Shown here in pieces: positions 11,610 to 36,176 of a stretch of DNA of 64,000 nt. Each line of letters starts with the position of its first letter. The stretch's first letter is position 1. Under the pieces are notes generated by a model, which had not been told where the DNA came from, made no database searches, and saw only the letters and a list, made by a program, of their open reading frames with translations. A program made the translations under genes and the position numbers. Source of the stretch: Candidatus Multivoradales bacterium (GTDB lineage Bacteria; Acidobacteriota; Thermoanaerobaculia; Multivoradales; JAHEKO01); contig CBDCXM010000008.1 in the NCBI GenBank assembly GCA_965223855.1, forward strand, positions 320,001-384,000, written 5' to 3'.

Positions 11610-12734
11610 ATGCCCGACTTCCGGTGCATCGAACCGGACGAGCTGGAGCGATTCGTCCATCGCCGGCCGCTCAATCTGAGCGACCCGGGGACCCTCAACC
11701 TCGCCGACAACCTCACCGAGGTTCTGCGCAAGGCCAACGAGTTCGTCCCCTCGGAGGGTGGGTCGATCCTGCTCGACCGTCCGACCGAGACCGGCAAGGC
11801 ACGGAGCCCCTCCCTGGCGTTCATCGCAGCCTTCGGAGACCGGGCCGACGACCTCCTGGGCACCACCGTCGATCATCCGGATGCCGTGGCGACCGGCGTC
11901 TACAGCACCGGACGCTCCGACCGGCGAGACCGCAACGGCAACGGCCCTCCGCCGGCCAACGGCGTCCGCTCCCTCGTGGCGATTCCCATCCGCATCGGAG
12001 ACGAGGTGTGCGGAGTTCTCGAGCTGATCGATCGGCGAGGCAGCGACGGGTTCTCGCAGGATGACGTCAACCTCCTCGAGATCTTCGCCGACTACATCTC
12101 GATCGCCATCCGCAACGTCCTCGAAGGCCGCCTCGCCCAGGAGATCGCTCAACGCGACAACCTGACGGGGCTGCTCAACGACCGGTCTCTGCACCTCGTC
12201 GTCTCGCGTGTGGTCGACGAGTGCCGTGAGGACGGCGAGGATCTGGCTCTGCTGTTCCTCGACCTCGACTACTTCAAGCACGTGAACGACACTCACGGGC
12301 ACCTCGCCGGAAGCCAGGTGTTGCGGGAGATCGGCCGCCTGTTGCGCACCCGGGCCGAGGCCGAGGGCGTGATCGCCGCCCGCTACGGCGGCGACGAGTT
12401 CGTGCTCGCCGCGCCCGCCAAGTCGCTCGACGAGGCGATCGACCTGGCCGAGCGTCTGCGTGACGCGATCAGCGCCGGGGTCTACTGCACCGAGCCCAGC
12501 GACATTCAGCCCGATGTGTTGAACCTGAGCGGGATTACCTGCTCGGTCGGGGTGGCGTCGCTGCATCGCCACACGACCCCGGACCTCTCTGCGGAGCGGT
12601 GCAAGAGCTCGCTGCTGCGGCTCGCCGACGCCGCGATGTACGTCGCCAAGGAGACCGGCCGCAACCGCACCGCCGTGGCCGGAGAGCTCGTGCGCCGGCG
12701 TCGATTCGAGGCTCCGACTCCACCACCGGACTAG
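11610..12734 (+). CDS. GAF-sensor diguanylate cyclase
   Basis: GAF-like N-terminus, DNLTGLLN, DLDYFKHVNDTHGH, RYGGDEF, ADAAMYVAKETGRN. Confidence 0.93.
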   Translation: MPDFRCIEPDELERFVHRRPLNLSDPGTLNLADNLTEVLRKANEFVPSEGGSILLDRPTETGKARSPSLAFIAAFGDRADDLLGTTVDHPDAVATGVYSTGRSDRRDRNGNGPPPANGVRSLVAIPIRIGDEVCGVLELIDRRGSDGFSQDDVNLLEIFADYISIAIRNVLEGRLAQEIAQRDNLTGLLNDRSLHLVVSRVVDECREDGEDLALLFLDLDYFKHVNDTHGHLAGSQVLREIGRLLRTRAEAEGVIAARYGGDEFVLAAPAKSLDEAIDLAERLRDAISAGVYCTEPSDIQPDVLNLSGITCSVGVASLHRHTTPDLSAERCKSSLLRLADAAMYVAKETGRNRTAVAGELVRRRRFEAPTPPPD

Positions 12735-12915
12735 CCTGAATCTCTCACGCCGGTGTGCTCTGGAAGGCCGTAGGTCGCTGAAAATACAAGGCTTCCGGTC
12801 GCGAGCACCACAGACATAGCCGTAGCTGCGTCGAGGAGCACAGTGACCGGAAAACGCAGTAGATTCAGTGACCTGCGGCCTTCCAGGGTGCAGCGGCGTG
12901 AGACGTTCAGGCTAC
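12731..12915. repeat. ~185-bp palindromic structured element, copy 1 (MITE-like or structured RNA)
   Basis: Ends TAGCCTGAA...TTCAGGCTA pair; internal arms TCTCACGCCG/CGGCGTGAGA and TGGAAGGCCGTAGGTCGCTGAA/TTCAGTGACCTGCGGCCTTCCA; about 84% identical (manual count) to 27320-27503. Confidence 0.88.
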
Positions 12916-12941
12916 GCGACCGGGCTGTGCACCGCCTCCCG

Positions 12942-12971
12942 TTGACCGCCCTTTCGGGCCGGTGCTAGCCT
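12942..12971 (+). promoter_or_regulatory. Putative sigma-70 promoter for lat-pcd
   Basis: TTGACC-N18-TAGCCT with an extended TG motif (TGcTAGCCT). Confidence 0.55.
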
Positions 12972-13041
12972 GCCCCGCGACGGCCCTGGAAGCCTCGGCC
13001 GCCCCGATCCCCCTCCAGAAGCACCACTCCGAGGTATCCGC

Positions 13042-14382
13042 ATGACGACGACGGTGTCGCACTCCGCCTCCATGGCTCCTGCAGACGTGCGGGAGCGACT
13101 CTCGCAGCACATCCTGGCCGACGGCCTGCCGATCGTCATCGATCTCGAGAAGAGTGCCGGCTCCTACCTGTGGGACAGCGTGAGGGGGCGCCGACTGCTC
13201 GACCTCTTCGGCTGTTTCTCCACCAGCACCCTCGGGTACAACCACCCCGGGCTGCAGACGCCCGAGGCGGAGGCGGCACTGCTGCCGGCGGCGATCAACA
13301 AACCGTCCAACTCCGATATCTATTCGCTCGAGATGGGCCACTTCGTCGAGGCGCTCGCGCGGACGGTTCCGGCACCGCTCGACGAGCGGATGTTCTTCAT
13401 CGAGGGCGGGGCCCTCGCCGTGGAGAACGCCCTCAAAACGGCGATGGACTGGAAGGTACGCAAGAACCTCGCGGCCGGGCGTGGCGAGATCGGCGGTGAG
13501 ATTCTGCACTTCGAGAGCGCGTTCCACGGACGCAGCGGCTACACCCTCTCGCTCACCAACACCGACCCGGTCAAGACGGACTACTTCCCCAAGTTCGACT
13601 GGCCTCGCATCCCGGTACCGCGCCAGCGCTTTCCACTCGATGACGCGGGGCGCGCCGACCTCGAGCGCGAGGAAGACGCCGCGGTCGCGGCGATCGAGGC
13701 CGCCGTCGCCGAGCGGCCGCACCGGATCGCGGCGCTGATCGTCGAGCCGATTCAGGGCGAGGGAGGGGACAACCACTTCCGGCCCGAGTTCCTGGCCCGG
13801 CTGCGGACGCTCGCCGACGAGCACGAGTTCCTGCTCGTTTTCGACGAGGTGCAGACCGGGTTCGCCACCACGGGAAGCTGGTGGTGCTTCGAGCAGCTCG
13901 GGGTCACGCCCGACGTCTTCGCCTTCGGAAAGAAGACGCAGGTGTGCGGCATCTGCGCCGGGCCCCGTGTGGACGAGGTCGATTCCGTCTTCAAGGTCTC
14001 GAGCCGCATCAACTCGACCTGGGGCGGCAATCTGGTCGACATGGTGCGCTGCCGCCTGTACGTCGAGATCATCGAGGCGGAGAACCTGCTCGACAACGCC
14101 CGCTCGATCGGAGCCTCGCTGCTCGCCGGTCTGCGCGAGCTCGAAGGGCGCTTCCCCGACCTCGTTTCCAACTCGCGCGGCCGCGGGCTCTTCATCGCCT
14201 TCGACCTGCCCGACGCCGACGTGCGCCGACGGGTCCTCGAGACGATGCTCGCCGCCGACGTCCTCGGCCTCGCCTCCGGAGAGCGCTCGATCCGCTTCCG
14301 CCCCGCCCTGACGCTCTCCGCAGCCGAAGCCGCCGAGGGCCTGGGCCGCCTGACGGAAGCGCTCGCCGGCAGCCGCGACTGA
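13042..14382 (+). CDS. lat: L-lysine 6-aminotransferase (class III PLP aminotransferase)
   Basis: INKPSNSDIYS, GALAVENALKTAMDWKVRKN, AFHGRSGYTLSLTNT, DEVQTG, AFGKKTQVCG, SRINSTWGGNLVDM. Confidence 0.93.
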   Translation: MTTTVSHSASMAPADVRERLSQHILADGLPIVIDLEKSAGSYLWDSVRGRRLLDLFGCFSTSTLGYNHPGLQTPEAEAALLPAAINKPSNSDIYSLEMGHFVEALARTVPAPLDERMFFIEGGALAVENALKTAMDWKVRKNLAAGRGEIGGEILHFESAFHGRSGYTLSLTNTDPVKTDYFPKFDWPRIPVPRQRFPLDDAGRADLEREEDAAVAAIEAAVAERPHRIAALIVEPIQGEGGDNHFRPEFLARLRTLADEHEFLLVFDEVQTGFATTGSWWCFEQLGVTPDVFAFGKKTQVCGICAGPRVDEVDSVFKVSSRINSTWGGNLVDMVRCRLYVEIIEAENLLDNARSIGASLLAGLRELEGRFPDLVSNSRGRGLFIAFDLPDADVRRRVLETMLAADVLGLASGERSIRFRPALTLSAAEAAEGLGRLTEALAGSRD

Positions 14383-27319: not shown

Positions 27320-27503
27320 CCAGCCCGGACTTCTCACGCCGCTGTGGCCTGGTAGGCCGTAGGTTGCTGAAGATACAAGGCGTCCGTTCGCGAGCACCGC
27401 AGGCATAGCCGAGCTACGTCGAGGAGCGCAGAGAACGGAGAACGCAGTAGATTCAGTGACATACGGTCTACCAGGGTGCAGTGGCGTGAGAAGTGCGGGC
27501 TAG
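27320..27503. repeat. ~184-bp palindromic structured element, copy 2
   Basis: AGCCCGGACTTCTCACGCCG...TGGCGTGAGAAGTGCGGGCT(AG); co-linear with 12731-12915 apart from a 1-nt gap in the apical loop. Confidence 0.88.
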
Positions 27504-35948: not shown

Positions 35949-36034
35949 TGGTGCGAAAGGGGGGACTCGAACCCCCACCCCTCGAAGGGACTAGATCCTA
36001 AGTCTAGCGCGTCTACCAATTCCGCCACTTTCGC
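35949..36034 (-). tRNA. tRNA-Leu (anticodon TAG)
   Basis: GCGAAAGTGGCGGAATTGGTAGACGCGCTAGACTTAGGATCTAGT...GGTTCGAGTCCCCCCTTTCGCACCA; long variable arm, encoded CCA. Confidence 0.97.
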
Positions 36035-36100: not shown

Positions 36101-36176
36101 TGGTGAGCCGCCAGGGACTCGAACCCCGAACCCGCAGATTAAGAGTCTGCTGCTCTACCAGTTGAGCTAGCGGCCC
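36101..36176 (-). tRNA. tRNA-Lys (anticodon CTT)
   Basis: GGGCCGCTAGCTCAACTGGTAGAGCAGCAGACTCTTAATCTGC...GGTTCGAGTCCCTGGCGGCTCACCA; 76 nt. Confidence 0.97.

Follow-up and report, generated by a model that had tools for sequence, protein, structure and literature searches.

Short intergenic repeats of bacteria such as MITEs (miniature inverted-repeat transposable elements) and repetitive extragenic palindromes (REPs) are usually treated as lineage-specific selfish repeats with hairpins that derive from inverted ends. The closest described relatives of the repeat reported here are the Correia elements (CREE/NEMIS) of Neisseria, the IS630-derived MITEEc1 and other MITEs that duplicate a TA dinucleotide. 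These elements are 100–200 bp long, contain no open reading frames (ORFs), have inverted ends, are present in tens to hundreds of copies, mostly between genes, and may give transcripts with long hairpins. Each of these families is bound to one genus or family, and no sharing of their inner sequence across phyla is known. Here we describe a repeat with the same outer features at the end of a diguanylate cyclase (GAF-GGDEF) gene in Candidatus Multivoradales bacterium (assembly GCA_965223855.1; 4.52 Mb in nine contigs, 68% G+C, 92% complete). It lies in a stretch of 64,000 nucleotides, positions 320001–384000 of contig 8 (CBDCXM010000008.1), which we refer to as the window. Unlike the Correia and MITEEc1 families, it encloses an inner core of 140 nt with asymmetric loops, covarying stems and strand-specific G·U pairs, which occurs in genome records labelled with seven phyla and also in forms without inverted ends.

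Other repeats share parts of this description. REP/BIME and REPIN sequences with their RAYT transposases are high-copy extragenic palindromes, often found after stop codons and sometimes in tandem arrays, and their hairpins are maintained by compensatory changes and recognized in a strand-specific manner. In contrast to the present element, REPs are 20–40 nt long (REPINs about 100 nt), carry a GTAG-type 5' tetranucleotide, make no target duplication and are lineage-specific. In integron attC sites, too, one strand folds, and this strand is antisense to the gene whose stop codon the site directly follows. However, attC sites conserve their structure and hardly any of their inner sequence, occur next to intI as arrays of cassettes, with R boxes of the type GTTRRRY, whereas the inner sequence is the most conserved part of the present element, its copies are dispersed and AAC/GTT is not kept among its subfamilies. 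TD-1 and TD-2 of Treponema (Rfam RF03155 and RF03162) are also multi-copy structured intergenic motifs and adjoin the core, but their sequence and fold differ and the core matches neither model. The likeness to 6S RNA is confined to the rod of about 185 nt; 6S RNA is a single-copy gene, and its central bubble imitates an open promoter, whereas the present element has about 30 copies and another loop architecture.

The features of the first copy (copy 1), its surroundings and the second copy (copy 2) are as follows, in positions of the window.

11610..12734, + strand: GAF-GGDEF gene (GGDEF E 8.8e-31), with the element at its stop codon
12731–12915, + strand: element region of copy 1, CTAGCC...GGCTAC
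12732..12733, no strand: left TA of the target-site duplication, which forms CTAG together with C12731 and G12734
12734..12912, + strand: element proper of copy 1, 179 nt, a single rod with the symmetric ends GCCTGAATCTCTCACGCC ... GGCGTGAGACGTTCAGGC
12748..12888, + strand: copy 1's conserved core, which matches covariance model R1 (85.5 bits, E 1.8e-20)
12781..12792, + strand: loop A, 5' strand, AAAATACAAGGC in copy 1 (family consensus AGAURCAAGGC)
12807..12813, + strand: loop B, 5' strand, ACCACAG in copy 1 (consensus ACCGCAG, of which the last G already starts the apical hairpin)
12814..12831, + strand: apical hairpin P3 (consensus GGCGUA-loop-UACGUY with a conserved basal G·U), of which copy 1 is a variant
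12832..12837, + strand: loop B, 3' strand, CGAGGA (GAGGA is invariant among 46 aligned sequences)
12853..12864, + strand: loop A, 3' strand, AACGCAGTAGAT (AACGMMGYAGAU in the consensus, where Y and the R on the 5' side covary)
12913..12914, no strand: right TA of the duplication, next to C12915, a position at which G or A is found in most copies
13042..14382, + strand: class-III aminotransferase gene, the right flank of the insertion site, syntenic in congeners
27320..27503, + strand: copy 2, CCAGCC...GGCTAG (core match 27337–27476, 92.1 bits)

The + strand of copy 1, folded as RNA, forms one uninterrupted rod of −132.1 kcal/mol, as compared to −63.9 ± 4.5 kcal/mol for 200 dinucleotide shuffles (z −15.1), none of which was as good. 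The − strand folds at −110.2 kcal/mol (z −10.2). A preliminary description of the locus, made from the letters alone, had read the gap after the GGDEF gene as one long hairpin and had placed the stop codon of the host gene within the left CTAG. Both points agree with the fold and with the TAG at 12732–12734, which ends the GAF-GGDEF gene. The same description had estimated some 30 differences between the two copies, among them at least three compensatory double changes. The alignment gives 29 mismatches and 1 gap column, and the three double changes that had been named fall on pairs of the minimum free energy (MFE) structure of copy 1: T-A to C-G at 12737/12909, A-T to T-A at 12764/12882 and G-C to T-A at 12798/12847. 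Sorted on the same pairs, the remaining differences are one-sided with the pair kept (8, mostly to or from G-U), pair-breaking (6) or located at unpaired sites (8). The motifs ATACAAGGC and AACGCAGTAG are common to both copies. Contigs from four DNA runs extend across each of the two junctions of copy 1 and are interrupted within the repeat, and no empty allele was seen among them.

Whole-genome searches, which the preliminary description had recommended together with a covariance model and a search for empty orthologous sites, identified a family of which these two copies are members. With blastn, 25 near-full-length copies with roughly 80–90% identity to copy 1 and about 10 fragments were found in the same genome, and covariance model R1 gave 33 matches. 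The copies are spread over all large contigs. The element has the ends GCCTGAAYNTCTCACGCC and GGCGTGAGANGTTCAGGC in 25 copies, is 179 nt long, contains no ORF and folds over its full length into one hairpin.

Comparison with four congeners, in each of which blastn gave no more than a single weak match to the element, demonstrated that the element has moved. The flanks of the GGDEF locus are syntenic in all four. In two of these genomes (G003 and G004) the GGDEF gene ends with a single ...GGACTAG..., which is directly followed by the downstream spacer without the element. At a second locus, genome G001 reads GAGC-TTAG-TCGA where the genome studied here reads AAGC-TTAG[CCTGAAC...TTTAGG]CTAG-TCGA. 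The 25 copies share the ends CTAGCC...GGCTAG, and the variants are CTAG...CTAA (four copies), ATAG...CTAA (one copy) and TTAG...CTAG. Taken with the empty site in G001, these variants fit only a duplication of TA, with an element that begins with G and ends with C. A 4-bp duplication is ruled out because TTAG would then flank both sides, and no scheme with a 3-bp duplication accommodates the end variants. The element thus inserts at YTAR targets, mostly CTAG, with duplication of TA. The mobile element targeting CTAG that had been proposed at the outset was therefore correct with regard to mobility, as seen from the single CTAG in G003 and G004 and the single TTAG in G001, but the duplication comprises only the TA within YTAR and not the entire CTAG.

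The distribution is patchy. By blastn the element is present in 10 of 41 relatives, and model R1 matches 41 of 151 sampled genomes of the same phylum, a tally that includes one genome flagged as unpublished (G093). The element is short and free of ORFs, with terminal inverted repeats, duplication of its target and orthologous sites that are empty, and copy 1 is accordingly a MITE, a non-autonomous transposon of 179 nt. Symmetric inverted ends with a TA duplication inside YTAR are the signature of Tc1/mariner/IS630 transposition, which suggests that a cut-and-paste transposase of this type has acted in trans.

Several derivatives accompany the full-length copies. With up to 4 mismatches allowed, the genome contains 72 occurrences of the 20-nt end sequence, among which 27 solo ends (CTAGCCTGAACTTCTCACGCC-like) were picked and inspected. 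They lack the rest of the element and are often located directly at gene ends; after one of them come a terminator-like hairpin and a T run. Two positions carry mini derivatives of about 30–47 nt, and one subfamily is marked by 15 extra nt (about AGCAGTCCGTTGAAC), inserted into the 3' arm close to where the rod ends. Their positions by contig (C) are:

C9:2724261, C8:608107, C8:134111, C8:504062, C9:1859641 and C2:19650: copies with the 15-nt insertion
C9:1119677–1119696, C9:1012636–1012655 and C9:2862013–2862032: examples of solo ends, the last with the terminator-like hairpin
C9:1950530 and C9:2694803: mini derivatives

The inner part of the element was analyzed in an alignment of 46 sequences (A2), which gave the consensus architecture and from which model R1 was built. 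From the outside inwards, the core consists of an outer stem P1, loop A, a variable stem P2, loop B and the hairpin P3. In loop A, the 5' strand AGAURCAAGGC faces the 3' strand AACGMMGYAGAU, such that AGAU is opposite AGAU (A-U, G·A, A·G, U-A, with tandem G·A) and R pairs with Y. Loop B is composed of ACCGCA on the 5' side and GAGGA on the 3' side. The hairpin P3 has the form GGCGUA-loop-UACGUY, and its pair 74/118 is G-U in 76 of the 86 cells with letters. Copies in other genera of the same family or order have about 70% identity and keep GATACAAGGC, ACGTCGAGGAG, AACGCAGTAGATTCAG and the ends, with stems that are rewritten.

The stems covary and the secondary structure is conserved. In a second alignment (A3), with 89 distinct sequences fitted to model R1, 91.5% of the pair cells are standard pairs, as compared to 62.8% with shuffled partners and 31–42% in slid controls. 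Changes on both sides were found at 31 of the 34 pairs, and the covariation score, 0.733 versus 0.208, was matched by none of 500 shuffles. The R-Y pair of loop A (44/151) covaries as well, with 53 GC and 31 AU. The earlier analysis of A2 with MAFFT and RNAalifold showed compensatory changes at 27 of the 34 pairs. We consider the covariation to be real because the effect is large and because the MAFFT/RNAalifold result agrees with it.

The fold is specific to one strand. In the cross-phylum set, G·U and U·G pairs number 326 versus 39 A·C and C·A pairs, or 222 versus 39 if the two conserved G·U sites at the base of P3 are left out, and in the copies of the genome studied here the numbers are 196 and 32. 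Without the use of an alignment, the MFE of the sense strand was the lower one in 73 of 73 Geobacter copies and in 91 of 92 cross-phylum copies, with a mean difference of about 12 kcal/mol. A C-to-T bias on the coding or leading strand is expected to give the opposite asymmetry, which argues for selection on the single-stranded sense form. The earlier suggestion that selection acts on single-stranded structure is thereby supported, both by covariation in the larger alignment and by strand-specific folding.

We searched one genome per prokaryotic species with a pattern of the two 3' loop motifs and obtained at least 116 matching stretches. Among the matches listed, the titles of the genome records, which are the source of the phylum labels, name Nitrospira/Nitrospiraceae (including Candidatus Nitrospira defluvii), Terriglobia, Thermoanaerobaculia, Bryobacteraceae, Geobacter/Desulfuromonadales/Geothermobacter, Pseudodesulfovibrio, Treponema (including T. 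vincentii OMZ 806), Gemmatimonadetes, Myxococcota and Gammaproteobacteria/Lysobacteraceae. The core thus occurs in records labelled with seven phyla, a spread that could not be read from the window alone. Model R1 gave 70 matches in Geobacter sp. AOG1, 52 in T. vincentii, 59 in Ca. N. defluvii, 86 in a Terriglobia metagenome-assembled genome (MAG) and 142 in Geothermobacter hydrogeniphilus, where some are arranged in head-to-tail arrays with a period of 136 nt. In the Geobacter order, the core was found in 32 of 41 genomes. Only one match to the loop pattern was obtained among 2.9 million viral contigs, and a plasmid search with one Geothermobacter copy gave no match. Examples from these genomes are:

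C2:80016–80428 (locus L173) in G. hydrogeniphilus (G045): head-to-tail array of three core units, resembling BIMEs
C11:172752–173433 in the same genome: a further array
C1 2367645–2367784 in Geobacter sp. AOG1 (G041): example of a core, from the loci L214–L260

The ends and the core are separable. The same core is enclosed by TA-flanked inverted ends of at least three kinds, GCCTGAMC..., GGAGCCTGTCCG... and GCCCGCATTATTC...; the types are GCCTGAMCTTCTCACC in the relatives of the genome studied here, GGAGCCTGTCCGAC in Nitrospira and GCCCGCATTATTCATGAA in gammaproteobacterial records. The copies in Geobacter, Geothermobacter and Treponema consist of the core without inverted ends. The reverse case is a 68-nt derivative in genome G006 (C66:13131–13197, L203:232–299), which retains the inverted ends and the outer stem and has lost the core. 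In Geobacter sp. AOG1, the stems of the copies differ from one another and the loops are the same. Three Geobacteraceae records share the position of a copy between secA and argJ, the stems of which have changed, and the secA end CPCGSGKKYKQCCGK* could be read directly beside it. In Geobacter, the idea that P1 is a host terminator into which a smaller core was inserted was rejected, as the P1 sequences form related subfamilies of constant length.

The intergenic regions of Treponema are mosaics of several repeated structured modules. In T. vincentii, TD-1 (L082:42–167) lies beside a core at 222–362 and TD-2 (L190:1651–1749) beside a core at 1501–1641, and a recurring 3' module (gttgaacagcc...attctgcgggg) follows several of the core copies.

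No Rfam family matched the core. At gathering thresholds, Rfam 15 gave no match for the element in the window, the sole matches being two tRNA genes on the − strand (35952–36034 and 36104–36176). At E <= 10, nothing relevant was found over 12600–13050, the families 6S, hammerhead, twister, hatchet, pistol, HDV, HEARO and TD-1/2 included. In 20 cross-phylum loci no match at E <= 1 extended over the core, and 6 Treponema loci likewise gave no family for it. The resemblance to 6S RNA noted in the preliminary description is thus one of shape alone, and 6S RNA was rejected for a repeat with about 30 copies and no Rfam match. An assignment to REP/REPIN-RAYT was also rejected, on the grounds that the TA duplication is present and that the presence of Y1_Tnp (PF01797) does not track the element. 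Y1_Tnp was found in 35 of the 41 relatives, with or without the element (a tally that includes the unpublished G005), and had no match in three element-rich genomes, Geobacter sp. AOG1, T. vincentii (G042) and G015 (at least 21 copies). No core was located within about 1.5 kb of 21 Y1_Tnp or DDE_3 loci, 14 of which are Y1_Tnp. The unit of 140–180 nt and the ends (C)TA-GCC also differ from those of REPs. In the genome studied here there are 16 weak Y1_Tnp matches in open frames of about 250–840 aa, for example at C9:452747–453064 and C9:526261–526527.

As a TA-duplicating MITE the element belongs to a known kind, but for the inner module, which folds on one strand, crosses phyla and is absent from Rfam, we found no description. 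Our literature search returned no paper that describes the element, and, among the papers listed with an exact loop string, all are unrelated by title. The Geobacter genome paper PMC2996986 refers to unnamed 'multicopy nucleotide sequences', among which the element family may be included. In the passages of bioRxiv 10.1101/2024.01.18.576219 that were consulted, nothing concerns the element family.

The search for an autonomous partner was extended to solo ends and to genome G006. On inspection, the 27 solo ends adjoin ordinary coding or intergenic sequence, and a Pfam search of the flank of one of them (L199) identified purD, pdxA and an ORF with a PSP1 domain, and no transposase. PF13358 is present in single copies in G006 and Ca. 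N. defluvii, and these two transposase copies lack the element's ends (0 matches at <=3 mismatches). A candidate pair of ends in G006, 2.95 kb apart, turned out to consist of one inverted copy and one truncated copy, and no autonomous partner was found among 100 of the 240 end matches in G006 that were listed. Many of the 240 end matches fall where contigs begin, and this suggests that the assembly is broken by a recent burst. G006 also contains an IS630-type element (C284, L205:953–2073) with a DDE_3 ORF of 349 aa and the inverted repeats GTGGACTGTAACTGTTGAA. Its flanks read cTA|GTGGACTGTAAC...GTTACAGGCCAC|TAg, and it has been inserted at CTAG with duplication of TA, the signature also seen in the MITE.

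The placement of the core relative to genes was studied in Geobacter sp. AOG1, using 64 copies at E <= 1e-5 in 20-kb windows and gene calls from an ORF and GC3 heuristic. The gene on the 3' side is on the opposite strand in 46 of the 64 copies, and in 28 of the 64 the stop codon of this convergent gene is located at most 10 nt from the 3' end of the model. On the 5' side, the end of a same-strand gene is as close as this in only 2 of the 64. Read by eye in the flanks, the flush stop codons are about 13 TAG, 8 TGA and 6 TAA, with one ambiguous. The mRNA of the neighbouring gene thus carries the antisense, weaker-folding version of the core directly after its stop codon. A flush convergent stop codon was also observed at Myxococcota, Desulfuromonadales/Geopsychrobacteraceae, Geothermobacter and MAG loci. 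In T. vincentii, where 34 of the 52 copies were examined, a convergent stop codon is at most 11 nt away in 8 copies. As read by eye in the flanks, about 12 T. vincentii copies instead lie just 5' of the start codon of a co-oriented gene, and a Shine-Dalgarno sequence immediately follows the rod; a plain terminator does not fit this arrangement. The placement rule thus holds in Geobacter and is not universal.

There is a suggestive bias with respect to the replication strand, both in the genome studied here and in Geobacter. In the former, 15 elements are in + and 4 in − orientation in regions of negative GC skew, versus 7 of each in regions of positive skew, and the tendency in Geobacter is similar. 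The skew of this genome is negative over C9:0–0.76 Mb and all of C8 and positive over C9:0.76–2.98 Mb. Along the AOG1 chromosome, the orientation of the copies switches near 0.97 Mb and 2.95 Mb.

The explanation that we favour, and consider reasonably probable, is a composite one: a MITE that carries a strand-specific folded RNA module with loops that are bound by a host factor. The element was inserted into the TA of the CTAG that holds the GGDEF stop codon, with duplication of the TA, presumably by a transposase of the Tc1/mariner/IS630 kind that was supplied in trans and is now undetectable in this genome. The inner part of about 140 nt would be an ancient module that is obliged to fold on one particular strand. 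The folded form is presumably RNA rather than DNA, and the loops may be recognition sites for a conserved host factor, either a protein or a nuclease. The sense transcript could serve as an orientation-dependent barrier or as a processing module. Old lineages would keep the module antisense and flush with the stop codon of the neighbouring gene, where it would act on transcripts that enter the 3' end of the gene from the opposite side. A specific role in insulation or processing is a tentative suggestion at best. There is a substantial chance that the core represents a new class of structured RNA. A bolder version, which we find possible yet doubtful, is that the core is an uncatalogued, widespread class of functional structured RNA, with tens to hundreds of copies per genome in at least seven phyla and with loops that recruit a universal factor or are catalytic, carried by TA-inserting transposons and then domesticated as an orientation-specific element at gene ends, antisense to and flush with stop codons. 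If this version is true, the core would be a new kind of transcript-boundary device rather than junk.

A number of observations weigh against the composite explanation. No cognate transposase was found, with no match to PF13358 in the genome studied here or in genomes G022 and G026, and the inverted repeats of the IS630-like element in G006 (cTA|GTGG...CCAC|TAg) are unlike those of the MITE. The alignments used for counting pairs were fitted to the model, which favours the structure, and the gene calls are crude and do not derive from annotation. The orientation in the genome studied here is random, with 13 convergent, 7 tandem-sense, 6 tandem-antisense, 5 divergent and 2 undetermined copies, and flush gene ends are found on the 5' side of 11 copies and on the 3' side of 8. 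In T. vincentii, a co-oriented gene is located on the 3' side in 19 of the 34 copies examined, among them the roughly 12 that precede its start codon. Finally, many Geobacter copies fill tight gaps between same-strand genes, where a sense promoter is hard to place, and this favours a reading at the level of DNA.

Such a reading is the main rival to the RNA module. One strand would extrude the rod as single-stranded DNA, to be recognized by a recombinase or an HUH/Y1 transposase in the manner of REP-RAYT, the ends of IS200/IS605 and the bottom strands of attC, with the loops as recognition features and no RNA involved. Besides the scant room for a sense promoter, it is consistent with the G·T-tolerant pairing on one strand only, with the conservation of the asymmetric loops, with the BIME-like arrays in Geothermobacter and with the preference of the folding strand for the C-rich strand. 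The folding strand in Geobacter is antisense to the neighbouring gene, whose stop codon it directly adjoins, an arrangement that attC sites also have. The element ends GCCTGAAC/GTTCAGGC resemble attC R boxes plus one extra base. However, the AAC/GTT of the R box is absent in other subfamilies and the copies are dispersed rather than arrayed beside an integrase (intI itself was not searched for). The MITE forms, with symmetric inverted ends and a TA duplication, bear the mark of DDE cut-and-paste transposition, whereas HUH enzymes make no duplication. The lack of Y1_Tnp in three element-rich genomes and of cores near the Y1_Tnp and DDE_3 loci also speaks against this reading, as do the AOG1 copies that break the GC-skew tendency and still obey the gene rule. 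We consider a DNA substrate unlikely, while taking it seriously.

It is very improbable that the element is an ordinary MITE, in which the rod merely represents two long inverted repeats kept alike for transposase binding and the inner conservation stems from the ends of a parent insertion sequence. The inverted ends, TA duplication, empty sites, patchy distribution, solo and mini derivatives and random orientation in the genome studied here would all be expected from such an element. Double-stranded repeats, however, give no reason for the ratio of G·U to A·C pairs, and the constancy of the asymmetric loops across the seven phylum labels despite changing stems would be left unexplained. Moreover, the core is kept in forms without inverted ends, three end sequences carry the same core, and the 68-nt derivative in G006 has the ends and no core. 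Hammerhead, twister and HDV-like ribozymes ride on repeats elsewhere, and the core could in principle be a catalytic RNA of this sort, for instance a self-cleaving ribozyme with two docking internal loops. Two highly conserved internal loops on a rod, the invariant GAGGA and AACG, the conserved G·U and the high copy number agree with this idea, and self-cleavage of the sense strand would explain why the sense orientation is rare just after the stop codons of Geobacter mRNAs. The likeness appears to be one of architecture only, however, and no Rfam ribozyme matched at E <= 10 in the region of the window or at E <= 1 in the 20 loci, so that we regard a ribozyme as highly improbable.

In combination, the loops and stems shared across phyla, the folding of one strand, the survival in genomes in which none of the tested transposase families was found and the strict stop-codon rule in Geobacter point to an undescribed function or mechanism of mobilization. 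Geobacter, Geothermobacter and Treponema vincentii, in which the element is abundant, are cultivated and tractable, and it is abundant as well in the enrichment genome of Candidatus Nitrospira defluvii. For annotation, the consequence is that each genome has hundreds of intergenic regions with a module that is unnamed in RNA and repeat libraries.

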